64,000 nt of DNA from an uncultured delta proteobacterium (GCA_963771175.1 CAVYSY010000039.1:192001-256000); one strand, 5' to 3'; counted from the first letter of the stretch, positions 45,847-58,222 are shown. The notes: generated by a model from the sequence alone, not told the origin. Numbers and translations: made by a program.

Positions 45847-46839
45847 GTGCTTCACGCTCACACCCTCCTCTCTACGTTCCTGATGTTCCAGACGCCCGCG
45901 CCCGCGCAGGCGCCCACCCCCGAGCAGACCTCCTCCGCCGAGCGCGCCGCCGCCGCCGCCGAGCGCGCAGCCGAGGCCGCCCAGCGCTCCGCCGAGGCCA
46001 ACGTGCGCATGGCGGAGGCCATCGAGCAGCTCGCCAAGGGCATCGCGAGCTCGGTGCCTCCCGCCGAGCAGCCCGCCGTGGAGCAGAAGGAGACCAAGGC
46101 CGAGAAGAAGGAGGCGGCGAGGAAGGACGTCTGGGACGTGACGGTGGGCCTGGGCCTCATCTTCGTCTCGGGCAATGCCTCCACCATCACGTTCAACGGC
46201 CTGGCCACGGCGGAGCGCAAGACGGAGCACTGGATCTACGCCGTCAGGGCCGCGGGCGTTTATGGCCAGAGCCGGCCTCCCGAGACGACGGAAGAGCAGA
46301 CGGAGTCGCAGGTGGTGGCGCTCAGCGCGTCCCTGCAGTTGCGCGGAGATCGCCGCTTCAGCGAGAAGATCAGCGGCTACCTGCTGGGCGGCGTGGAGAC
46401 GGACCACGTGAAGAGCGTGGAGGCGCGCGGCATCGGCGAGGCGGGTGTCGGCGTCATCTGGTTGGACGAGAAGAGGAAGGACGGCGGCGAGTCCTACCTG
46501 CGCACGGATCTCGCCTTCCGCTACGCCCGCGAGACGCGCTTCCAGTACTACCCCTCGCGCATGGATCTGCCGGATGTGTCCCTCGGCGGCCCCCGCTTCG
46601 GTGCGGCCTTCCGCTACGCCATCACCAAGGACATCTCCTTCGGGGAGGAGCTGAGCGTGCTGCCCAGCCTCATCGAGGGCTCGCGCATGCTCATCACCAA
46701 CCAGACGCAGCTCACCGTGAAGCTCACGAAGGCGCTGGCCATCAACACCACCTTCCTCCTGCAGTACGACAGCGAGCCGGCCGAGGGGAAGGTGCCCACC
46801 GACACCTCGCTCGCGGCGAGCGTCGCGGTGACCTTCTAG
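45847..46839 (+). CDS. DUF481-like outer-membrane beta-barrel
   Basis: SGNAS; amphipathic strands; C-terminal VAVTF. Confidence 0.75.
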   Translation: MLHAHTLLSTFLMFQTPAPAQAPTPEQTSSAERAAAAAERAAEAAQRSAEANVRMAEAIEQLAKGIASSVPPAEQPAVEQKETKAEKKEAARKDVWDVTVGLGLIFVSGNASTITFNGLATAERKTEHWIYAVRAAGVYGQSRPPETTEEQTESQVVALSASLQLRGDRRFSEKISGYLLGGVETDHVKSVEARGIGEAGVGVIWLDEKRKDGGESYLRTDLAFRYARETRFQYYPSRMDLPDVSLGGPRFGAAFRYAITKDISFGEELSVLPSLIEGSRMLITNQTQLTVKLTKALAINTTFLLQYDSEPAEGKVPTDTSLAASVAVTF

Positions 46840-46866
46840 GCCGCACGCGCGGCGGACCGGGGTGGC

Positions 46867-47829
46867 TCAGCCCTCGCTGCCCCGGTACCACGCCACCAGC
46901 TTCGCCAGCCCCTCCTCCAACGGCACCGAGGGACGGAAACCCGTCTCGCGCTCCAGCGCCGTCACGTCCGCGCACGTCACCTCCAGCTCTCCCGGCTGCG
47001 CGGGCCGCAGCTCCACCCAGGCCTTCATCCCGAGCTGCTCCTCCAGCAGGTCCACGAACCGCGCCATCGACACCGGCGCGCCCCGGCCCACGTTCAGCAC
47101 GCGGTACGGCGGCGTGTCCGCGGGCGGCTTGTCCAGCACCCGCACCAGCACCTCCACCACGTCATCCACGTAGGTGAAGTCGCGCTGCATCTTCCCCTCG
47201 CCGTTCAGCACGATGGAGCGGCCCTCCAGCATCGCCCGGAGGAACAGCATCGGCGACATGTCCGGCCGGCCCCACGGGCCGTACACCGTGAACAGCCGCA
47301 GCCCCGTCACCGGCATCCCGTACTGGTGGCTGTAGACGTGCGCCATCATCTCGTCCGCGCGCTTCGTCGCCGCGTAGAGGCTCAGCGGACGATCCGCGGG
47401 CGCCTGCTCGGAGAAGGGCACCGGCGTGCCCGCCCCGTACACCGAGCTCGACGAGGCGAACACCAGGTGCTTCACCTTCGCCAGCCGGCAGAGCTCCAAC
47501 ACCTGCAGGAAGCCCGTGACATTCGTCTCCGCGTAATCCGGCGCCTCCGAGGGCAGCGAGCGTACGCCCACTCGCGCCGCCAGGTGCACCACGCGCTCGG
47601 GCCTCGCTCCGTCGAAGAGCTCCCGACACGCCTTCACGTCGCGGATGTCCATCCGGTGGAAACCGAAGTTCGTCGCCGCCTTCAGCCGCGACAGCCGCGT
47701 CGCCTTCAGCGTCACGTCTCCCGACGTGTCCAGGTTGTCCAACCCGATGACGGTGTCCCCACGCGCGAGCAGCCGCTCACAGACGTGATACCCGATGAAG
47801 CCCGCTGCGCCCGTGACGAGCACCTTCAT
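46867..47829 (-). CDS. NAD-dependent epimerase (UDP-glucuronate 4-epimerase-like)
   Basis: TGAAGFIG, HLAARVGVR, ASSSSVYG, YAATK, FTVYGPWGRPDM, RDFTYVDD. Confidence 0.9.
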   Translation of the reverse strand: MKVLVTGAAGFIGYHVCERLLARGDTVIGLDNLDTSGDVTLKATRLSRLKAATNFGFHRMDIRDVKACRELFDGARPERVVHLAARVGVRSLPSEAPDYAETNVTGFLQVLELCRLAKVKHLVFASSSSVYGAGTPVPFSEQAPADRPLSLYAATKRADEMMAHVYSHQYGMPVTGLRLFTVYGPWGRPDMSPMLFLRAMLEGRSIVLNGEGKMQRDFTYVDDVVEVLVRVLDKPPADTPPYRVLNVGRGAPVSMARFVDLLEEQLGMKAWVELRPAQPGELEVTCADVTALERETGFRPSVPLEEGLAKLVAWYRGSEG

Positions 47830-47920
47830 GACTCACTCCCATCGAGGAGGAGGACCGTGGGTGGGAATACCCTCACCCCACGCCCCTCTCCGAGGCAAGG
47901 GGGACATAACAAAGAGTCCG

Positions 47921-49280
47921 TCAGTCCTCGATCTGCGTTTCCAGGAAGGGTCGCTGACGGCCGCGCCAGTCCCTGGAACTCGCGCCTTCCGAGATCAACC
48001 GACCCACGAAGAGCCCCGCCGCGCACGCGTGGTGAACGTTGTCGTGGACGAAGAGTGCACTCCGCCCCAACGGGTAGAGGCCCTCCACCCCACTCAATGC
48101 GGTCAGCGCCCGATCCCGCACCGCGTCGAAGCCCTTGCGGTACAGCGGATAGGCCGTCGCCATGCGCCGCACTCGCGCTCCGAGGATGTCCACTCCCGCG
48201 AGCCCCGCTCGCTCCAGCGCCGGGCGCACCCGCTCCGTGAGCTCCTCCGGCGACGCGCCGCCAGATGGCATCTCCCACCGCGCACGGCAGATCGAAGCCC
48301 ACCACCGTGCGCCCCACGGGTCCCTCACCTCCTGAGAAATTCTTGGCCTCGAAGAGGCGGTTCGCCGGGAGGCGCTCGTCCGCGAAGTAGTGCACGTCCT
48401 GCGACGTGCCCCTGTCCCGCGCGAGCTCCAAGTACAGCAGAGTCAGGGCCCGGTAGCTCAGTCCCTCGGCCGCCTCGGGTCGCCCCGTCCACCCGCACAG
48501 CAGTGGCAGCGGAACCGTCGCCACCACCGACTCCGCCGGCAGCTCGCGCCCCTCCACCACCACGGCCCTCACCCGCCCCCGCTCCAGCACCAGCCCCTCG
48601 GCCGCCGCTCCGCAGCGCACCTCTCCGCCGGCCCGCCGCAGGTTCTCCGCCAGGCCCTCCGCCAGCGCCCCGAAGCCGCCCTCCGGGTAGAAATAGCGCC
48701 GCCCCGCGGACGAGCCTCCGCGCCCGAGCGCCGCGCGCACCACCGCCAGCGGGCCGCCCTTCTGCACCCGCGCCCGGCCGAGCGAAGCGTCCAGCTCCTC
48801 CGGTGGCAGGCCCCACACCTTCCGCGCCGCCGGCTCGTACAGCACCCGCGCCGCATGCCGCCCCAACCGCCTCGCCGCCTCCGCGCCGAAGTGGCCGCCC
48901 TCCGGCGGACGGACCCGCGCCGCTACCGCCGACAGCCCGTGCCTCACCACCTCGACGAGCCCCAACCCCCGGGCAATGCCCAGGAGCGACAGCGGGTACG
49001 GCAGCCTGCGCCCGCCCACGTGCACCATGCCGCTGCGCGCTCGCACTCGGAGCGTGCCGCCCAGGGCCGCCCGGTAGAGTTCCAGCACCTCGGGCCCCGC
49101 CGCGTGGTGCAGTCGGTGCGGGCCGTAGTCCACCTTGAAGCCCGCGAAGTCGAACGAGCCCGAGAGACCCCCCACCTGCGCGGACGCCTCGAGCACCACC
49201 ACCCGCCTGCCGGCCTGGACGAGCGCATGCGCCGCGGCCAGTCCCGACGGCCCCGCGCCGATGACCACCGTCGCGCTCAC
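47921..49280 (-). CDS. FAD-dependent oxidoreductase (UDP-galactopyranose mutase/HemY-like), frameshift near 48280
   Basis: IGAGPSG, VGGLSGS, DYGPHR, YFYPEGGFG, AYPLY, LGRSA. Confidence 0.75.
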
Positions 49281-50002
49281 CCCGCGCTCCCCACCGCCGG
49301 CAATTCCAGCGACACGAGCGCCCTCGGCGCCCGGCCCGCGCGCAGCCAGCCGATGCCTCGCGCCACCGTGCGCCCCATCAGCCACGTGTCCCGCACCGGC
49401 CGCCACTTCGAGCAACCCACGCGTGCGTGGTAGGCGATCGGCAGGAAGACGATGGGGTCCCCCGCCGCCGCCAGCGCCAGCGTCAACGTCGTGGTGAGCG
49501 AGAAGCGATCCGGCAGCACCGGCGCGAGCGACAGCAGATCCGCCGTGCGCAGCACCCGCAGGCCCGAGTTGAGATCCGGCGCCTCGAAGCCACCCACCCA
49601 GCGCACCGCGCCCCGGAAGAGCGCCTTCACCGCCGAGCGCGCGAAGGGCTCGGAGGCCCCGAGCTTCGGGCGGGCGCCGATCGCCTGCCGGGCCCCCCCT
49701 CGCACCGCCGCCACCAGCGCGGGCAGCGCCGACTCCGGGTACGTCCCGTCCGCGTCGATGATCGCCAGCAGCGAGCCGCGCACCTGGGCGACCCCGGCCT
49801 TGATCGCCGCGCCGTAACCCACTCCCGTCAACGTGAGCACCCGCGCCCCGGCCTCGCGCGCCACCGCACCCGTGCCGTCCCGCGAGCCATCATCCACGAC
49901 GAGGATCTCGTGCGACTCCCCCGCCAGCGCCACACCCACCCGCCGCACCACCTCGGCGATGGCACCCACCTCGTCGCGAGCGGGGATGACGACGCTGATC
50001 AT
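49277..50002 (-). CDS. GT2 glycosyltransferase (polyprenol-phosphate sugar synthase-like)
   Basis: ISVVIPARDE, VDDGSRDGT, GYGAAIK, IDADGTY, DLNSGLR. Confidence 0.88.
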   Translation of the reverse strand: MISVVIPARDEVGAIAEVVRRVGVALAGESHEILVVDDGSRDGTGAVAREAGARVLTLTGVGYGAAIKAGVAQVRGSLLAIIDADGTYPESALPALVAAVRGGARQAIGARPKLGASEPFARSAVKALFRGAVRWVGGFEAPDLNSGLRVLRTADLLSLAPVLPDRFSLTTTLTLALAAAGDPIVFLPIAYHARVGCSKWRPVRDTWLMGRTVARGIGWLRAGRAPRALVSLELPAVGSAG

Positions 50003-50619
50003 CCCGCCGCCACCTCCGGGGCCGGCACCGGCCGCCACATCTCCCACAGTGGCCACAGCAGCATCGGCGACCAGCCCACCGCCGCCCCCACCACCGACAC
50101 CGGCATCAGCCAGCCCCACTGCGGTCCCACGAAGCGCACCAGCAGCGGGGCCAGCAGGTGGACGAACGTGGCCACCGAGGCCAGGGTGATGACGCCCACC
50201 TTCAGCCGCGTGGACAGCGCCGTCAGCATGAACAGGTGCCCCACGATGAGCAGCACCACCGGCACGGTGAAGAGGTGGAAGTGGAACGTCTCCATCACCT
50301 GCCGCGCGGGCTTCTCCAGCCGCATGGGCGCGGCGGCCGCCGTCTCTCCGGGCAGCTCCAGCGCGGGGCCGTCCGAGGGCAGCTCCAACGCCGGGCCTCC
50401 CGCCGCCTCCTCCGCCGGAGCGGGCGCGGGCTCGTGCGCGGCGGCGCCACCCCGGTAGTACTCCGCCGAGCCACGCGCGGACAGTCCGCCGAACGAGTCC
50501 GCGTACAGCCACACGGAGGAGACGAACCCCAGCACGAGGAACAGCAGGAACCCGGTGTAGAGGACGCGGGCCTCGAGCGAGAGGCGGGTGATGGGAAACG
50601 GCCGGGCGTACTGACGCAC
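49999..50619 (-). CDS. 4-TM membrane protein with His motifs
   Basis: ETFHFHLF, GHLF, FVHLL in or near TM helices. Confidence 0.7.
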   Translation of the reverse strand: MRQYARPFPITRLSLEARVLYTGFLLFLVLGFVSSVWLYADSFGGLSARGSAEYYRGGAAAHEPAPAPAEEAAGGPALELPSDGPALELPGETAAAAPMRLEKPARQVMETFHFHLFTVPVVLLIVGHLFMLTALSTRLKVGVITLASVATFVHLLAPLLVRFVGPQWGWLMPVSVVGAAVGWSPMLLWPLWEMWRPVPAPEVAAG

Positions 50620-50626
50620 GAGAAGA

Positions 50627-51244
50627 CTACCCCTTGGGAGCGCTCGGAGCGGCGGTCTGGGCGCCGCTCAGTGCCCCGGGCTTGAGGATGAGCTCGTCCA
50701 GCAGGACGAGCGCGCGACGCACTCCGATGGCCATCGACCGCGACGAGATGGTCGCCCCCGTCACCACGTCGACGTCCACTCCGGCCCGCACCGGATCCTT
50801 CGCCGTCTTCCCCTGGAACTGGCGCCGGAAGCGCGCATCGGTGATCTCCTCACCGTACTTCTCCCGGTACACCATCACCTCGTGGCGCTCGACCACGCCC
50901 TCGGGCGACAGCTTCACCGCGAAGGTGATCTGCTCGTGCTGGCCGAGCTCCTCGTCGATGACCGCGTAGCCATCCACGTGCTCACCGGTGGTGGCCACGA
51001 AGATGACGTACTCGGGCTTCGTCGGCTTGTAGCCGAGCCGCCCCTGCACCGCGGCCAGCTCGGCCAGGCCGAGCTTCACCTTGCGATAGGAGACGCGCTG
51101 GCTCTTGGGGAAGAACTCCTTGAGGACCTGCGGCGTGGTGAAGAAGGTGCCCGCCGCCTCCGCGGGGAGCGACACACCGACCCACAGCCATACCGCCAGT
51201 GCCAGCGAGAAGTGCTTCACGGGCCATCCCCTTACCATGTTCAT
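50627..51244 (-). CDS. Exported FMN-binding domain protein
   Basis: Signal peptide; YREKYGEEI, F..QF.GK, DVVTGATISS flavinylation motif. Confidence 0.88.
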   Translation of the reverse strand: MNMVRGWPVKHFSLALAVWLWVGVSLPAEAAGTFFTTPQVLKEFFPKSQRVSYRKVKLGLAELAAVQGRLGYKPTKPEYVIFVATTGEHVDGYAVIDEELGQHEQITFAVKLSPEGVVERHEVMVYREKYGEEITDARFRRQFQGKTAKDPVRAGVDVDVVTGATISSRSMAIGVRRALVLLDELILKPGALSGAQTAAPSAPKG

Positions 51245-51765
51245 GGCAACTCCCGAACCGCCTGGATGACGGCCTGCCGGACATGCGAGCGCCAATCCGT
51301 CCGGGCGCGATAGAGACTCTCCGAGGTGATGGCGCGGCGCTCATCGCTCGACAGGACCCGGCCATCCGGGCCCACCACCATCGACTGCAATTCCACTTTC
51401 ACCTGGCCGAGCGACTGGAGCGAGGACAGGTCCAACCGGGTCAACACCAGCACCACCGTGGCGTCCGCCTGGTACTGGCGCGCCACCGCCGAGGCCTGCT
51501 CCACCGTGGGGGCGGGCCCCGACATCGTCTCCACGCCCAGCACCGAGTAGCCCCGGGAGCGCAGGGCCTCCGCACCCTCCCGGGCCACCACGTCTCGGGG
51601 CTCCTCTCCGCCAAGCACGTCCCCGATGAGCCCTCGGGGCGCGGGCTTCGACGCCACCGACGCGGCCAGCACCACCACGCGCGCGGGTGAGCCCTCCGAG
51701 CGCCGGGGCGTCCCGGCACAGGCGGCGGTCAGCATCACGACGGTGGCGAGCAGGAAGGCGCGCAT
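51241..51765 (-). CDS. Hypothetical lipoprotein
   Basis: MRAFLLATVVMLTAAC lipobox. Confidence 0.7.
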   Translation of the reverse strand: MRAFLLATVVMLTAACAGTPRRSEGSPARVVVLAASVASKPAPRGLIGDVLGGEEPRDVVAREGAEALRSRGYSVLGVETMSGPAPTVEQASAVARQYQADATVVLVLTRLDLSSLQSLGQVKVELQSMVVGPDGRVLSSDERRAITSESLYRARTDWRSHVRQAVIQAVRELP

Positions 51766-51779
51766 CGGTTCCCTGGCTC

Positions 51780-53174
51780 TCAAAAGAGGTAGGCCACGCT
51801 GGCGAGGAACGTCCCGTGACCGTCCTGCCAGAACCCGCTGGACCACGCGTGCGGCATCTCCCCGTTCCCGCCGCTCTTCTCCCAGAAGTAGCTGGCCTTG
51901 AGGACGTAGGGAGGCAGCGGCCGGAAGTTCAGGCCGAGCGTCAGCCGCGCCACGTCTCCCGCGGTGACGAACTCCGTGTCGGTGTCCTTCTCCTCGTAAC
52001 GGAGGGAGGCGGTGAAATGCCCGTCGTGCCACTCGTCCGGGAGCAACCGGAAGAAGGGCTCGATGCGGAAGCGGTAGTTGGCCTGCCCGTAGAAGCCGAA
52101 CATCCCCGTGGGCACGGGGTCGCGGGTGTTGGCCGTCGAGCCATCCGGGAAGCCCTGCACGTAGCCAGGGTCGATGAAGGCGCGCACCACCTCGCCCGTC
52201 AGGTCCAACGCGCCGAGCCGCCAGAAGACATCGGCGTTGACCATGTTCACCCGACGGCCCTCGAGGTCATACGCGCCCGTGTAGCCGGACAGGCCCGCCT
52301 CCAGACCCAGGAAGGGCGAGACGGACACGCGCCCGGTGAGGGCCTTGTCGTCGTTGTTGTCCTGCAGGTGGCTGCCGCGCGCCGCCCGGAAGCCCTGGCC
52401 GTCGAGGATCTTCGCGTCGAGGCCGTTGACCGCGTACACCTCGTAGTTCAGCCGCCAGTCCCGGCCCAGGTCGAACTTGCCCAGGAAGCCGGCGCCGGAC
52501 TCGAACCAGGTGGTGGGGACGACCGTGGTGTATGCGATGGGCCGCTCGGGCAGTTCCTGCGCCGGCGCATCGTGACGCAGGTTGTACGCGCCCACCGGCA
52601 CGAGGATGACGCCCGCCCGGAACGTGGCCCAGTCCGTCAGCATCAGGTCCACCACGGAGAACTCGAGCAGCACCTCGCCCGCGCCCAGGATGCCGTCGCG
52701 CTTGAGCGGGCTGCCCGCGAACTCGAACTCGATCTCCGTCGCCGTGGAGATGCGCTCGGAGATGTGGCTGTAGACGAAGAGCACGTACCGGTGGTTGCGG
52801 AACGTGGACACTCCCTGCTGGGGCAGGATGAAGTCGTGCTCGGCGTAGCCGCCCAGCGTCGTGCGGTCGAGGATGGCCGCCGCCCGCTGCGCCAGCGTGG
52901 TGGTGGGCTGGAGCCGCTCGGTGAAGGTGTCCTTCGCGACCTGAGCGGGCGCCTCGGCGTTGGGGGCCGGGGTCGCCGCCGTGTCCGTGCCGGCGGGATC
53001 CTCCAGACCCTCCAGGTCCAGGCGAGGACCGTCGTCCTGCTTCGAGCGCTCCGCGTCGGGCTGCCGGGGAGCATCCTCCGCTGGCGTGGCGGGCGCGGAG
53101 CCCTCCTCTTGCGCCAGTCCGGAGAGGGGCGCGAGCAGCAGGGGCAGCAGGAACAGGTGGTAACGGCGCGACAC
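51780..53174 (-). CDS. Outer-membrane porin (OprO/P-like beta-barrel)
   Basis: Signal peptide; TTLGGYAE, EIEFE, VPTTWFESG, DNNDDKA, C-terminal VAYLF. Confidence 0.8.
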   Translation of the reverse strand: MSRRYHLFLLPLLLAPLSGLAQEEGSAPATPAEDAPRQPDAERSKQDDGPRLDLEGLEDPAGTDTAATPAPNAEAPAQVAKDTFTERLQPTTTLAQRAAAILDRTTLGGYAEHDFILPQQGVSTFRNHRYVLFVYSHISERISTATEIEFEFAGSPLKRDGILGAGEVLLEFSVVDLMLTDWATFRAGVILVPVGAYNLRHDAPAQELPERPIAYTTVVPTTWFESGAGFLGKFDLGRDWRLNYEVYAVNGLDAKILDGQGFRAARGSHLQDNNDDKALTGRVSVSPFLGLEAGLSGYTGAYDLEGRRVNMVNADVFWRLGALDLTGEVVRAFIDPGYVQGFPDGSTANTRDPVPTGMFGFYGQANYRFRIEPFFRLLPDEWHDGHFTASLRYEEKDTDTEFVTAGDVARLTLGLNFRPLPPYVLKASYFWEKSGGNGEMPHAWSSGFWQDGHGTFLASVAYLF

Positions 53175-53256
53175 GGTGGCTCCCGAAGTCACTCGGAGGA
53201 AAAGGTCGGGCCGGGGCCGCGCGAGCAGGACCCCGGCCGGGAGGTTCACGACAGGC

Positions 53257-54327
53257 TCAGGCCTTCACGTCGATGGCGAAGACGGTCTCCAGCTCGCCGA
53301 GCAGCTCCGTCGCCTTCATGTCGGTGATCCAGGTGGTGTCGCCGTTCTTCGCCTTGGCGATCGCGGCGTCGAAGGCCGTCCGCAGCTTCGTGGCGAGGTT
53401 CGCCTTGGCGCTGCCCTCCGGAGCGTTCTTCATGTACGGCTCCAGCGTCCGGAAGAAGCCCTCGCCCTCGACGAGCTTCACGTAGGCGGCCTCCGGCTTC
53501 GTCTTGTTGAGCTCGATGTCGTAGAGCTCGTGACCGACGGAGTACGCGAAGACGCTCTGCAGCTTGGCATCGAGGCGCTGGACGAAGCGCGAGTACTGCT
53601 CGTCATCGCCGAACGCCATGGAGTCCGCGCCCTTGGCCTTCAGCGCGCCCTGGATGATGCAGGAGCCTTCCTTGATGAGCGCGAAGAGCTCGGCGCTCAG
53701 CGTGGTGCCGTTGTTGCCGTCGCGGCCCGTGGCCAGCTTCGCGAGACCCCGGCGACCGGCCTCCGCGTTGCTCGCGCCGGTGCCGAGGTAGCCGAAGGCC
53801 TCGTCGTAGTGCAGGAAGGACGGCTCGTCGTAGAGCTCCTCCATCACCGACAGGTACAGGAAGCGGTAGAGGCCCGCCTTCTGGAAGCGCTGCTTGGCCA
53901 GCGACACGTCCAGCGTCTTGGTGGCCGCCGCCAGCTCATCGAGCGAGCCCAGGATGGCCGCGTCGATCGCGGGGCCCACGGCGGCTGCATCCCCGGTGAA
54001 GTGCTTGTCCTCGCGAGCCAGCACCTTCGCCTGGAGGTTGGTGGTCGGATCCTTGTACTTCGCCCGGATGGCCTCGGCCACGGAGGCCGACTTCGTCCAA
54101 TCGCTCTCCGCCTGGCCGAACAGCGCCACCATCTCGTCGATCGCCACCAGGCGCTTGTCCTGGGGCTCATGGTGGGTGACGTCGAACGCGGTGTACTCGG
54201 CGATGGACTCATCGCACTGCGCGGACACGGCCGGCGTCTCCGGAGTCTCCGGCTTGTCCTCACCGCAGCCCACCAGCAGGGCCACCGACAGGAACATCCC
54301 CATTCCAACCGACTTCGTGCGCTTCAT
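53257..54327 (-). CDS. Helical lipoprotein, FEA1/DUF4856-like (putative iron binding)
   Basis: LVGC lipobox; HYDEAFGYLG; EGEGFFRTLEP. Confidence 0.6.
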   Translation of the reverse strand: MKRTKSVGMGMFLSVALLVGCGEDKPETPETPAVSAQCDESIAEYTAFDVTHHEPQDKRLVAIDEMVALFGQAESDWTKSASVAEAIRAKYKDPTTNLQAKVLAREDKHFTGDAAAVGPAIDAAILGSLDELAAATKTLDVSLAKQRFQKAGLYRFLYLSVMEELYDEPSFLHYDEAFGYLGTGASNAEAGRRGLAKLATGRDGNNGTTLSAELFALIKEGSCIIQGALKAKGADSMAFGDDEQYSRFVQRLDAKLQSVFAYSVGHELYDIELNKTKPEAAYVKLVEGEGFFRTLEPYMKNAPEGSAKANLATKLRTAFDAAIAKAKNGDTTWITDMKATELLGELETVFAIDVKA

Positions 54328-54386
54328 GGTGTGCTTCTCCGTTGCAACCAAGGTGTTGGCACTCCGGGGCTCCCGGGTGCGAAAGG

Positions 54387-55073
54387 TCACTCGCCCGTCT
54401 CTTTGTCCACGCAGCGGCCGCGCAGGCACGTCTTGTCCGCGGTGCAGTGGGCATCCACCTCGCAGCACACGCTCAGGCAGGCGCAGCAGGCGGTGCCCTC
54501 GGGCGCGGTGCCGGCGAGGCACTCGGCGGACGCGACGCAGTTGGGCGGATCCACGCACACCACCGCCTTGGGCGCGTTCGACTCGCCGATGTACGAGACC
54601 GTGCCGTAGTAGGAGTCCACCACCTTGCGGCCCGGCTCTCCCATGTTGGTGTCGAAGTACTCGTAGACGCCCGGCTTCGGGAACTGGTAGCGCCAGTAGG
54701 AGTACGTCTCGTGGCTCTCGGTGCGGACGTTGTAGGGCTTCACCAGGTTGGGGCTGAAGAGCGCCGAGGGCGCCGACAGCGAGGTGACGTTGGTGGGCAC
54801 GTCGGCCTGGTAGTTGCGGAACTCGACGATCTGCCCCGGCCGCATGGACAGGCCCCCCGCCGGCTGGATGTCCGCGGGGTCGCTCACCACGTACTGCTGC
54901 CCGATGCACATGGGCGCGATGGTGCGGTAGCGGCCGGAGATGATGCGGTTCATGGACACGGAGATGCGGGGATCTCCCTTCGCCGAGTCCTGGACGGGCC
55001 GGAAGTCCTCGGGGACGGGGCCCTTGCAGGCGGCGAGCAGGAGCGCGAGGCAGGGAGCGAGACGGGCGCGCAT
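54387..55073 (-). CDS. Cupredoxin-like lipoprotein with Cys-rich tail
   Basis: LAAC lipobox; LSMRPGQIVEFRN, YQFPKPGVYEYFD; 11 Cys in the last ~60 aa. Confidence 0.6.
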   Translation of the reverse strand: MRARLAPCLALLLAACKGPVPEDFRPVQDSAKGDPRISVSMNRIISGRYRTIAPMCIGQQYVVSDPADIQPAGGLSMRPGQIVEFRNYQADVPTNVTSLSAPSALFSPNLVKPYNVRTESHETYSYWRYQFPKPGVYEYFDTNMGEPGRKVVDSYYGTVSYIGESNAPKAVVCVDPPNCVASAECLAGTAPEGTACCACLSVCCEVDAHCTADKTCLRGRCVDKETGE

Positions 55074-56565
55074 CAGAGGACCTTGTGCGGAGTGGCCGGC
55101 GGCGCGGGCCGGTAGTGGAAGAGGACGATGTCGTGGGCGTGCGAGCGCACGCGCCGGTCGCACGCGAAGCGCGAGACGGGCTCCAGGTGGGGCGCGAGCG
55201 CCTCGGCCCCGGGAGCGGTGGAGGTGACGTAGACGTCCGCCCCGGCGGCGGCCACGCGCTCCACCTCGCGGCGGAGCTGCTCGCCCGTGGCGGGACGGCC
55301 GGCGCGGTAGTGGGGCACGTAGTGCTCGAAGAGGCGGGCCTCCTCGCCGGTGAAGAGCAGCGTGCCGGCCGGGGGCAGCGTGCGGGACACGTGGGACACC
55401 AGGAGCGCCGCGGGCGCGGGCTCGGAGCCCTGGGCGAGCGCCACCGGCAGCATCACCGCCGCGGTGGTCGCGGCCAGCGCCCCGGCCAGGGGGAGGAGCA
55501 CCCGGGGGGCCCAGGCGCGGGCGAGGACCGCCACGCCCACCGCCACCAGCAGCGCCAGTGCGAACACCACCGGCAGGGCATGGCGCGCCTTGAGCAGGTT
55601 CTGCCCGAGGAACATCCACGCGCCATAGGGGACACCCAACGCCAGGGCGAGCCGCGCCACCCGGCGCTCACCGGAGGACAGCACACCGCGCAGCGCCGCG
55701 CGGACGAACGCCACCAGCGCGCCGGAGAAGCCCAGGGCCAGGAGGAAGCGCGCGACCCGCAGGGCCACGGAGTCACCGGCCGAGGCCGGGCCAGGGCAAC
55801 CCGAGGCCCGCGGCCACGATGTCGAACCCGAGGTGCTCCAGCCGCCAGCCGAGGCTCCGGGCGCACGGCGACGGTGCCGCCCCACTGGCCCGCGTGGCCC
55901 CCCAGGAAGCCCGAGCCGATGCGCAGCAACTCCGCCGGGCCCGTGAGGACCACCATCGGGAGCAGCCACACCAGCACGCCGAGCCCGCCACCCGCGAACG
56001 CCGCCAGCCGCCGACCGCGAGGGACCACCAGGGCCAGGCCCAGCAGCGCCGGGAGGAACGAGGGCCGGGCCCCGAGCGCCACGCCAGCCACGGCGCCCGC
56101 GAGCACCGCCGCCCGAGGCGCGGAGTCGCCAGCCGTCAGCACGGCGCAGGCCGTGAGAACCAGGAGCGCGAGGCCCGCCCCATCCGAGCCGGGGGTCGCG
56201 CCGAAGAGGACGGGAAGGGGCAGGAGCGCCAGCAGGGCCACGCCCACGAGCGCCCCGGCCGCCCCGAGGTACGGCCGCAGGACGAAGCCCAACAGGCCGA
56301 TGGCCACCGCCCCGAGCACGAGACCGGGAAGGGCCAGCGCGAGCACCTCGGGGGCACCAGCGGCCGAGGCCAGCCGGGCCATCGCGACATACACCGGGTA
56401 GCCCGGGAAGTGAGGAGCCTGGGCGGCCAGGTCGAACCCATGGAGGGCGCGCGCGAAGTTCACCGAGTCCAGGTCCGGCAGGAGCCGGGGCAACGCGAGC
56501 AGACGCGCCGCCACTCCGGCCACCCCCAGCAATGCGACGGAGCCAGCGAAGGCCCGGGGAGTCAT
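55073..56565 (-). CDS. GT-C/PMT-like multi-TM glycosyltransferase (frameshift near 55860)
   Basis: DLDSVNFA, PHFPGYPVY, GARP, KARHALP; many TM helices. Confidence 0.7.
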
Positions 56566-56601
56566 CGTCCCCTGCCCCGCTTCTGGCGCGCCATCTGCTG
56601 G

Positions 56602-56632
56602 GTGAATGATTTTGAAAGTCATTCTCAATAAC
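56602..56632. promoter_or_regulatory. Fur-box-like site between divergent transcription units
   Basis: GATTTTGAAAGTCATTCTC (56608-56626) matches 14/19 of GATAATGATAATCATTATC; AT-rich island in GC-rich DNA. Confidence 0.7.
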
Positions 56633-56726
56633 CCGGAATGGTTGGAATACTACGCCCACGACATAGGGTCAAGCCGAGGTCGAGGCTGGCGCGCCTGGGT
56701 CATCCATGGGACAGAGGGCGGCCATC

Positions 56727-57741
56727 ATGATGATGAGTGCCCTGCTGGTGGTCCTGGCCGCAGCACCCGCTCCACAGGTCCGCACCGAGACGCGTCCGAT
56801 GATGGGGACGACGGTGACGGTGACGCTGGTGGGAGGCACGCCCGAGAAGGCGCGAGAGGGCTTCGACGCGGCCTTCGGGGCCTTCGAGCGCGTCAACCAG
56901 GTGATGAACGAGTGGCGCCCGGACAGCGAGCTGTCGGCGGTGAACCGCAAGGCGGGAGACGGGGAGCTGGTGGCGATTCCCGAGGACCTGTGCGCGGCGC
57001 TGAGGCGCGGGGTGCAGGGGGCGGAGCAGACGGGAGGGCTCTTCGACCCGACATGGGCGGCACTGCGAGGCATGTGGCGCTTCGGGACGGACCTGACCCC
57101 TGCCCTGCCGGACCCGGCGGAGCTGAAGAAGCGGTGCGAACTCATCTCGTACAAGGATCTGGAGTTCGCCCCGGCGGGAGACGGTGGCGAGCCCGGGTGC
57201 AAGGTGCGGCTGAAGCGAGCGGGGATGCAGCTCGGGCTGGGAGGGCTGGCGAAGGGCTGGGGCGTGGACGAGGCGGTGAAGAAGCTGCGAGGGCTGGGCT
57301 TCAAGAACTTCTTCGTGCAGGCCGGGGGAGACTTCTACGCGGGGGGGAAGAAGGCGGGCCGACCGTGGAAGGTGGGGATCCGGGATCCGCGAGGCGAGCG
57401 GGACAGCGTGTTCGCGGTGCTCGAGGTCTCCGACGCGGCCTTCTCGACGAGCGGCGACTACGAGAACTTCTTCATCCTGGAGGGCAAGCGCTACCACCAC
57501 ATCATCGATCCGCAGGACGTGCTACCCGGCGACGGCGTCACGCTCGGCGACGATCCTCGCGCCGAGCGCGGTGGACGCGGAGGTGCTGACGAAGTCCGTG
57601 TTCATCCTCGGAGCCAAGGAGGGACTGGCGCTCGCGGAGAAGCACGGTGCCTCCGCCGTGGTGGTGACGGCGGACAACCAGGTGGTGGTGTCACCCAAGC
57701 TGGAAAAAAAGCTGAAGCGGCTGAGGTCCCCAAACCCGTGA
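56727..57741 (+). CDS. apbE: FAD:protein FMN transferase (frameshift near 57520)
   Basis: MMGT, SELSAVN, GLFDPT, LGGLAKGWGVD, AGGD, STSGDYE, YHHIIDP. Confidence 0.92.
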
Positions 57742-57850
57742 ATATGGTCAGATGAACCCGCTCTGGAAAGGCGACTGCTATGCCTGCTTTCGGCTGTGCG
57801 AGGGCCAGCGCCAGTGGCCATTTCACCTATGTAAACCGCGAACATAACGC

Positions 57851-58222
57851 ATGAACGAAGAAACAGATTGGGAAGAGGTACGAGCGTTAGCGGAACAGAT
57901 TGAGCGGGGCCAACCGCTCGAACTCACTGTGTCTGTGTGCGATCTCTTGCGGCGTGCAGCCCGACAAGTGGCTCTGTCCGATGATGACGCGGCACAGGGC
58001 ATCCGCTCTCCCTCGGATGCAGCAACCCTCGTGGCGAAGATTTCTCGGAGAATCCGCGTCGGCTCTCGGCGTTTGTCCCGCGCCATCGTGGATGCCAGCC
58101 GTCTTCAGGACGCCGGGGATATACAGGGCGCACGGAAGTTGTTCGAAAACGTGCTGGCCGTCGAGGTCGTGCCGCTGTACCGGGAGATTGCTCAAACGCA
58201 GTTGAATGCGTTGGAGGAGTAG
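57851..58222 (+). CDS. Myxobacterial DUSAM-like domain protein
   Basis: DWEEVRAL, RRIRVGSRRL, VLAVEVVPLYREIA. Confidence 0.75.
   Translation: MNEETDWEEVRALAEQIERGQPLELTVSVCDLLRRAARQVALSDDDAAQGIRSPSDAATLVAKISRRIRVGSRRLSRAIVDASRLQDAGDIQGARKLFENVLAVEVVPLYREIAQTQLNALEE

Follow-up and report, generated by a model that had tools for sequence, protein, structure and literature searches.

Bacterial iron uptake is usually explained by siderophores together with TonB-dependent receptors, or by the Feo, Efe and FTR1 transporters. Oxidation of Fe(II) during uptake has been proposed for EfeUOB and FTR1/P19-type systems, and ApbE attaches flavin mononucleotide (FMN) to the Thr or Ser acceptor of Dxx[ST]GA[ST] motifs. 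In the 2021 survey of flavinylation by Meheust et al. (PMC8238504), FMN_bind proteins were linked to P19/FTR1 iron uptake; the survey names five uncharacterised membrane systems, and the Aq_1264_TM family is not one of the five. According to Huang et al. 2024 (PMC11334425), PepSY-like, MsrQ-like, DUF4405 and FezC proteins are haem-b membrane partners of flavinylated proteins, with four histidines as their most conserved residues. Here we analyse a stretch of 64,000 nucleotides from an uncultured delta proteobacterium (GCA_963771175.1 CAVYSY010000039.1:192001-256000; the window), which carries a minus-strand run of genes encoding, among others, an FMN_bind protein, an Aq_1264_TM membrane protein (memE), a porin and three lipoproteins (lipoJ, lipoI and lipoG), divergent from apbE. 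We give a little better than an even chance to the reading that this operon is a Fur-repressed, ApbE-flavinylation-dependent envelope module for iron acquisition. A literature search found no published description of the operon or of its combination of features (ApbE, FMN-binding, Fur, porin, iron uptake), and the words 'porin', 'glycosyltransferase', 'cupredoxin', 'Fea1' and 'imelysin' have 0 occurrences each in the 2021 survey (PMC8238504).

The clusters described by Meheust et al. (P19/FTR1 with FMN_bind, and the PepSY-like/FoxB type) are the closest relatives of this locus. As portrayed in the survey's account of them, they share with it an extracytosolic FMN_bind protein with an ApbE motif, a nearby apbE gene and a link to iron uptake (PMC8238504), and the lipoI family found here even occurs fused to P19. 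However, the present cluster has no P19, FTR1, PepSY or VIT1 gene, its membrane partner belongs to another family with four transmembrane (TM) helices, and a dedicated porin and glycosylation genes belong to the operon. EfeUOB, in which EfeO combines a cupredoxin with an M75/imelysin domain, offers a second comparison: a cupredoxin-like protein beside a helical periplasmic protein and Fur-type control are common to both, and in two related loci (L084 and L105) imelysin/EfeO-like genes take the place of lipoI beside the module. In contrast to EfeO, lipoI is not detectably an M75 protein, and the cluster is without an EfeU/FTR1 permease or a DyP peroxidase. From gene content, the Archangium-type operon to which this locus belongs appears to be a variant of flavinylation-linked iron assimilation with lineage-specific gene expansion.

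The ten genes of the minus strand (56565-46867; Table 1) appear to constitute one translationally coupled operon. At four junctions the start codon of one gene overlaps the stop codon of the gene before it (GT-C/lipoJ, by 1 nucleotide; lipoG/FMN_bind; memE/GT2; GT2/flavoenzyme), other intergenic gaps in the run are 7-91 nucleotides, and a spacer of 140 nucleotides separates GT-C from the divergent apbE. Since G+C content of the window is about 70%, genes were called by third-position GC bias besides open reading frames (ORFs), and start codons were then fixed separately. A promoter and terminator scan of 46700-57900 returned 0 promoters and 3 terminator-like sites, not above shuffles. An earlier annotation made from the DNA alone (the sequence-only reading) had listed nine minus-strand genes, the divergent apbE and a Fur-like box between them; all are present in that order. 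Its extent for the cluster, 47921..57741, holds for these genes, and its left border has to be moved outwards to take in the epimerase as last gene of the operon.

Across genome and metagenome loci, FMN_bind and memE, usually with the porin, are the conserved core of the system, with lipoproteins and sugar genes as lineage-specific additions. The memE search returned 36 genome loci, all from Myxococcota, and 36 metagenome loci (numbered here with the prefix L). FMN_bind was upstream of memE on the same strand in all 22 genome loci that hold upstream sequence (24 distant loci, tblastn), and directly upstream in 22 of the 24 metagenome loci with room for it; the porin was detected in 14 of the same 24 genome loci. 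Only Myxococcia-type loci hold lipoJ, lipoI, lipoG, GT2 and the flavoenzyme; the same is true of GT-C apart from its recurrence in other arrangements (L107, L119, L122). In the Archangium/Cystobacter lineage apbE adjoins the core, and the window itself falls in Archangium by the source names of its homologues. Seven lipoI-bearing loci show the whole gene order, two of them Vulgatibacter-type, without apbE or epimerase nearby. The proposal that the nine genes make up one indivisible system therefore has to be given up: only FMN_bind and memE, usually the porin and often GT-C, are conserved. What survives of the overall interpretation given by the sequence-only reading is Fur-type control, a flavinylatable FMN_bind protein and an iron context.

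The FMN_bind protein is a predicted substrate of ApbE. It is RnfG-like at 2e-7 (NCBIfam), and the N-termini of this protein and its orthologues resemble signal peptides or anchors by eye. All 20 aligned orthologues keep G164, A165, T166 and S168 of its flavinylation motif (Table 1); the Pfam match, the invariant G-A-T and the adjacent apbE all agree with the earlier assignment of an FMN-binding protein with TGAT. Three ApbE loci are present in the genome from which the window comes.

The second member of the core, memE, was assigned to Aq_1264_TM by a precomputed PF27139 label carried by all 120 listed homologues, and the Atlas names the same family. No literature on the Aq_1264 family was found. 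Four histidines (H113, H115, H128 and H154), all of them in TM helices, are invariant in 20 of 20 sequences, as are E16, E110 and E193; the His-bearing membrane protein noticed from the sequence alone is thus a four-TM protein with four invariant histidines. Its AF2 model (pLDDT 83.4) has four long helices, for which fold searches found no specific relative (best Foldseek E 2.5; best VIA Z 8.8, to generic helix bundles). The MsrQ-like, PepSY-like, DUF4405 and FezC cytochromes resemble memE in being small membrane proteins beside a flavinylated protein with four conserved TM histidines, which is the only resemblance to emerge from their description (PMC11334425). By analogy with them, memE is probably a haem-b protein ligated by its four histidines, though this is a guess. 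Two Pro/Ala/Thr/Glu-rich regions, the periplasmic loop of memE (50330-50450) and the N-terminal region of the porin (53030-53174), are length-variable among relatives; both could be targets of the operon's own GT-C.

Several observations bear on regulation. The extended Fur consensus has a TGA-N3-TGA-N3-TCA-N3-TCA skeleton; the box in the apbE/GT-C spacer matches the consensus at 16 of 21 positions, keeps the full skeleton and is invariant or nearly so in six of six aligned Archangium intergenic regions, whose flanks vary. The genome was scanned with a self-built Fur skeleton that demanded A/T at nine filler positions and was scored out of 21. In the normal-GC DNA of the 9.83-Mb genome, 10 loci scored at least 17 and 5 scored at least 18, and the operon box tied for the top score. 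Two other sites scoring at least 18 precede a TonB-dependent receptor/PiuC-like hydroxylase locus and an FTR1 gene, and sites scoring 17 precede tonB and a gene for Fe/Mn superoxide dismutase, so that four of the nine other loci scoring at least 17 are iron-related. The remaining five have no obvious iron link (MFS/Hpt, a locus with no clear family, tryptophan halogenase/prnB, a peptidase/truB spacer and a Kelch-repeat gene). When the exact 21-mer was searched across the genome with up to four mismatches, only itself was found.

Fur-type sites were also frequent in related loci. The 36 genome loci hold 32 merged sites scoring at least 18 in 0.535 Mb, compared with 5 in the 9.83-Mb genome, although the skeleton is self-made and such counts overstate independence because many loci are close relatives. 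Of these sites, 26 lie within -60 to +250 of estimated GT-C, apbE, lipoI or FMN_bind starts, and the other six precede a porin gene or a gene for di-haem oxidoreductase (DHOR); in Polyangia-type loci the porin has its own Fur-type site upstream. Of the 36 genome loci, 25 have at least one site scoring 18 or more before genes of the module; the other 11 are mostly contig-edge fragments or have sites that score 16-17. Fur-type sites were also present in 16 of 36 metagenome loci. In M. xanthus, Fur boxes were found with enterobacterial matrices, and Fur (MXAN_3702) represses siderophore genes (PMC9548883, PMC11388931), which makes a canonical-looking box plausible in this order; the parts of these two papers that treat Fur do not mention the operon. 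Taken by their sequence, these sites make Fur-type control of the operon, as proposed earlier, well supported.

Neighbouring genes in related loci provide the iron context. A fur gene is directly beside the module in L078, L083 and L101. When the regulators of L078 and L083 were compared with NCBIfam models, Fur matched at 1e-30 to 1e-33, PerR at about 1e-22 and Zur at 1e-16, all below curated cut-offs. In L122, a complete FeoB gene followed by GT-C is transcribed divergently from the FMN_bind-memE pair, and each of the two spacers contains a Fur-type site; in L084 and L105 a DHOR gene and an imelysin gene are directly upstream of porin-FMN_bind-memE, the L084 imelysin matching EfeO at 1.7e-14. 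Together with the P19 fusion of the lipoI family described below, these neighbours agree with the iron context assumed from the sequence alone. Genes seen once each beside FMN_bind-memE encode a multicopper oxidase (L089 9567-10538), a VWA protein with MopE metal-binding motifs (L087 4626-6008) and a rubrerythrin (L085 4486-4944).

The same regulatory and neighbourhood data could be read differently, with the module serving oxidative-stress defence or periplasmic redox repair under PerR-like control and delivering electrons not to iron but to a peroxidase or repair enzyme of the periplasm. We consider this unlikely. The box before the superoxide dismutase gene of the same genome would fit it, as would the DHOR proteins, which are putative peroxidases (L084, L105), the rubrerythrin (L085), a thioredoxin-like/PMSR protein (L079) and the second-best rank of PerR models for the adjacent regulators. 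However, the L078 and L083 regulators match Fur 8-10 orders of magnitude better than PerR, other top boxes of the genome precede tonB, a TonB-dependent receptor gene and the FTR1 gene, and FeoB and the P19 fusion are iron-specific links. The DHOR/imelysin pair itself is usually read as iron-related, as its imelysin-EfeO match would suggest.

Under the iron-acquisition reading, for which we infer both the activity of the module and its redox direction, Fur would leave the shared operator at low iron, and in the periplasm ApbE would modify the FMN_bind protein with FMN at Thr166. memE would carry electrons across the inner membrane to the flavin, by analogy with the PepSY-like, MsrQ-like and DUF4405 partners, and the flavin would reduce Fe(III) species admitted by the porin. 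The resulting Fe(II) would be passed to a ferrous importer encoded elsewhere, with FeoB as the neighbour in one locus, and in the Archangium lineage lipoJ and lipoI would bind iron or hand it on. In its most specific form the proposal is that Aq_1264_TM is a minimal four-TM, four-His electron conduit which, with its obligate FMN_bind protein and porin, makes up a Fur-repressed ferric reductase for iron uptake without TonB or siderophores, to which the Archangium-type operon adds iron-binding lipoproteins and iron-regulated periplasmic glycosylation; this fuller version is tentative, and we would sooner doubt it than accept it.

The lipoproteins were described in the sequence-only reading as FEA1-like (lipoI) and cupredoxin-like (lipoJ), and the first description has indirect, the second weak support. 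The AF2 model of lipoI is all-helical (pLDDT 89.9), and a search of 1.84 billion representatives with its profile yields 73 proteins. The relevant Pfam models, including FEA1 (PF07692) and DUF4856 (PF16148), match no member of the family among 27 scanned, even at E 10. On the other hand, among 35 distant profile matches that were scanned, five match DUF4856, three of them above the cut-off, and 28 of 30 Atlas feature neighbours of lipoI fall in the DUF4856 set. In a protein of 504 residues (P0219), a P19 Fe2+-transport domain is fused to a helical domain resembling lipoI, whose Fea1 match of 23.3 bits falls short of the cut-off of 25; hhalign relates the lipoI family to P0219 with a probability of 97% (E 8e-11, 232 columns). 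It appears from these profiles that lipoI belongs to a rare helical family distantly tied to DUF4856 and to the P19-fused Fea1-like domain; FEA1 likeness is thus confined to distant relatives, and no paper on DUF4856 was found in the literature.

An identity of lipoI as an imelysin/M75 protein of the EfeO type was considered and rejected: there is no Pfam match, and hhalign against the L084 imelysin gives a probability of 0.4%. Foldseek with lipoI returned nothing at E < 0.26; imelysin/EfeO chains are weak rows (E 0.84-1.2, TM scores 0.16-0.23) and are missing from the 50 best VIA rows, in which only the C-terminal four-helix bundle matches, to b562-type bundles. The lipoI profile found kinase noise only among PDB sequences. 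Of 41 related genomes, 10 were found to have lipoI and 19 to have lipoJ. Five complete Archangium genomes (L042-L046) keep all other cluster genes, with lipoI cleanly missing between lipoJ and the porin, and together with the window (53257-54327) they form a natural presence/absence pair for testing the role of lipoI.

These proteins also bear on the possibility of a reversed electron flow, in which Fe(II) would be oxidised during uptake, electrons would pass through the flavin and memE into the quinone pool, and the permease would be either memE or a distant FTR1. Such a scheme is improbable in our judgement, even though a cupredoxin-like protein beside a helical periplasmic protein recalls a split EfeO-like logic, the lipoI family is found fused to P19, the genome has, outside the window, an FTR1 gene preceded by a Fur-type box, and the invariant His/Glu set runs along the memE helices. 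lipoI has no imelysin/M75 similarity, no FTR1 gene is present in any annotated locus, and the sole adjacent importer found is FeoB, which takes Fe(II); moreover, at typical potentials flavins generally reduce Fe(III) chelates more readily than they oxidise Fe(II).

For lipoJ, 11 of 14 weak matches of its profile to PDB sequences are cupredoxins (E 0.16-1.5), Cupredoxin_1 was detected at E 0.018 in one of 21 family members, and two homologues are named 'cupredoxin domain-containing' in their source annotation. The alignment holds no invariant His, Met or domain Cys that could serve as type-1 copper ligands: its conserved Cys residues are confined to the lipobox region and a Cys-rich C-terminal tail, and the invariant residues are Asp, Asn, Tyr, Arg and Trp besides that tail. 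The cupredoxin likeness thus stands at the level of weak profile matches, without conservation of the copper site. A function in the handling of copper or another metal, with lipoJ binding periplasmic copper and the flavoprotein changing the redox state of the metal, would draw on this likeness and on the multicopper oxidase beside memE in L089 and the MopE-motif protein beside FMN_bind in L087. It is nevertheless very improbable indeed, given the missing copper ligands, Fur-type regulation by regulators that resemble Fur, and the occurrence of each copper-type neighbour only once. The third lipoprotein, lipoG, had no Pfam, NCBIfam or PDB-sequence match and was found only in Myxococcia-type clusters. 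The porin has a Pro/Thr/Ala-rich N-terminal stretch; no single stretch of it passes the Porin_O_P (PF07396) model, of which profile positions 52-186 of 370 are matched, and neither the porin nor GT-C had a PDB sequence match.

Four of the ten genes are predicted to make or transfer sugars. GT2 and GT-C are encoded together, both above their Pfam cut-offs (Table 1). GT2 resembles polyprenyl-phosphate hexose synthases in its family matches (AglJ 6.9e-19 and dolichyl-phosphate hexose transferase 3.8e-16, both below curated NCBIfam cut-offs), and the best solved relatives of an intact flavoenzyme orthologue are UDP-galactopyranose mutases (3hdq, 7.5e-9; 4dsg, 7.8e-8; about 260 residues). The epimerase matches GalE at 3e-42 and TviC at 3.7e-33, both below cut-off (NCBIfam); it is syntenic in Archangium and in Cystobacter fuscus L071, not in L072, and none was seen in Vulgatibacter-type loci. 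GT-C homologues adjoin the module with Fur-type sites of their own in L083, L119 and L122, and a further homologue is beside it in L107, where no Fur-type site was seen. Together these genes look like a pathway for a lipid-linked sugar: GT2, GT-C, the mutase-like flavoenzyme and the epimerase would produce it and then, on the periplasmic side, attach it to an acceptor in the periplasm or outer membrane. The combination of GT2 with a PMT_2-type GT-C, alongside nucleotide-sugar enzymes, is reminiscent of the lipid-linked sugar/GT-C pairs ArnC/ArnT, Ppm1/Pmt and RgtE/RgtA-D; to our knowledge, a Fur-type iron operon setting is not a known feature of these pairs.

The number of these genes, and the recurrence of GT-C with its own sites, could mean that in this lineage the operon mainly carries out an iron-regulated modification of envelope glycans, with the flavoprotein module as a co-regulated passenger. 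We regard this as quite unlikely: FMN_bind and memE occur without any glycosyltransferase gene in many loci (e.g., L078-L082, L085, L089-L094), GT2 and the flavoenzyme are confined to Myxococcia-type clusters, and the porin and lipoproteins would be left unexplained.

Several observations weigh against the module's proposed role in iron acquisition. FTR1, TonB-receptor Plug and FeoB_N had no match within the window, as the sequence-only reading had stated for FTR1, Feo and TonB-dependent receptors, and hence neither operon nor window provides an inner-membrane iron permease; in the 82%-complete genome, no convincing FeoB was found either (best FeoB_N match E 1.9e-14). memE has four helices, compared with six in the known cytochrome partners (PMC11334425), and matched none of the flavinylation-linked cytochrome families by fold or by Pfam at E 0.01; its His/Glu ladder could equally bind a metal ion instead of haem. 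Of 301 Myxococcota genomes in the sample, only 31, from 17 of 136 genera, yielded a member of the memE family, and lipoI, which is missing from five complete genomes, is dispensable. Sequence alone does not separate Fur boxes from those of PerR or Zur, a similar box precedes the superoxide dismutase gene, and the site counts are inflated by relatedness as described above. Polyangia-type neighbours (a response regulator, a heparinase II/III-like protein, a HisKA protein, a Crp regulator, GT1 and asparagine synthase) do not point specifically to iron, and the role of the sugar genes is left unexplained.

Table 1. Genes, operator, motif and frame-breaking bases of the cluster, in positions of the window
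Feature	Position	Strand	Remarks
GT-C-fold membrane glycosyltransferase-like protein	55073..56565	minus	PMT_2 4.1e-7, 30.8 bits (Pfam cut-off 26.1)
lipoJ, 228-aa lipoprotein	54387..55073	minus	No Pfam match; lipobox in sequence
lipoI, 356-aa lipoprotein	53257..54327	minus	No Pfam match
Outer-membrane porin	51780..53174	minus	Porin_O_P 24.8 bits (cut-off 20.9), E 1.6e-5
lipoG, 174-aa lipoprotein	51241..51765	minus	Lipobox in sequence; no Pfam match
Exported FMN_bind protein	50627..51244	minus	PF04205 33 bits (cut-off 22), E 9.4e-8
Motif DVVTGATISS of FMN_bind protein	50770..50741		TGAT at 50761..50750
memE, four-TM membrane protein	49999..50619	minus	Label PF27139 Aq_1264_TM; no match in the Pfam copy used
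GT2 glycosyltransferase	49277..50002	minus	Glycos_transf_2 1.9e-15, 57.7 bits
FAD-dependent flavoenzyme, amine-oxidase/PRK07208 type	47921..49280	minus	Amino_oxidase 7e-22, NAD_binding_8 8e-16
NAD-dependent sugar-nucleotide epimerase	46867..47829	minus	Epimerase 5.6e-61; last gene
apbE, FAD:protein FMN transferase	56706..57741	plus	ApbE 1.4e-64 (residues 1-275), tail 8.1e-7
Fur-type operator TGATTTTGAAAGTCATTCTCA	56607..56627		AT-rich 21-bp box, apbE/GT-C divergent intergenic region
Extra base in apbE	near 57513		Reads in two frames as assembled; one frame in relatives
Extra bases in GT-C	near 55853 and 55780		Frame broken as assembled; intact in relatives
Extra base in flavoenzyme	near 48260		Frame broken as assembled

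Alignment with three relatives revealed four single-base insertions that break three genes of the cluster (Table 1), whereas every other coding indel relative to them is a multiple of three. The four frameshifts are probably assembly errors and not decay, since the extra bases are missing from every covering contig in four public runs from two studies; that of apbE is absent in three of three runs covering the site, and that of the flavoenzyme in four of four. A single public contig of 23 kb spans all of the region compared, with 175 differences. Frame breaks are also in excess across the window's genome, which has a completeness rating of 81.7%: a 3'-truncation flag was raised for 2338 of 10956 ORFs (21%), against 17 of 190 (9%) in other genomes' loci, 8 of 10 of which come from complete or near-complete assemblies, although the flag, a coding signal that ends well before the stop codon, is crude. 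A pseudogene interpretation was accordingly rejected as first choice on account of the covering contigs and the genome-wide excess, which leaves real decay in this one strain as a less likely alternative. Examples of frame breaks elsewhere in the genome are at C6:156655-157382 and C46:110980-111315; a second apbE is split in two, and an in-frame TGA interrupts the main fur gene.

The scans for Fur-type sites yielded some additional observations. In Polyangia-type loci L085, L086, L088-L092 and L094, the site overlaps the first codons of FMN_bind (peptide MKIVFNFK...). These codons end in A/T, which is unusual in GC-rich genomes, and DNA rather than peptide therefore seems to be under selection at this start. 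The score-17 site at C57:189322 has a tryptophan halogenase gene and a PrnB homologue (pyrrolnitrin-type) just downstream (locus L056 4044-6917). Three copies of a common sequence around CAAAGTCATCCGT(T/C)TTGA were found at C26:652235, C42:10814 and C58:44546, and could be a repeated operator or a repeat element. A region of contig C11 (about 195,000-208,000) has 26-28% G+C in a genome of about 70% G+C and is rich in matches to the AT motif; it may be foreign DNA or a mis-binned contig.

The Archangium version of the operon is a good test case, as the intact cluster is present in cultivable relatives and lipoI occurs in some natural variants but not in others. If the iron-acquisition reading is true, a separate and widespread low-iron module, composed of a porin, a flavinylated periplasmic protein and a new membrane-protein family, would stand beside the usual routes of bacterial iron uptake. 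It would supply the Gram-negative envelope with a reductive step, missing so far, ahead of the ferrous importers, give a function to the unstudied Aq_1264_TM family and to DUF4856/Fea1-like lipoproteins, and extend the known set of membrane partners for ApbE substrates.

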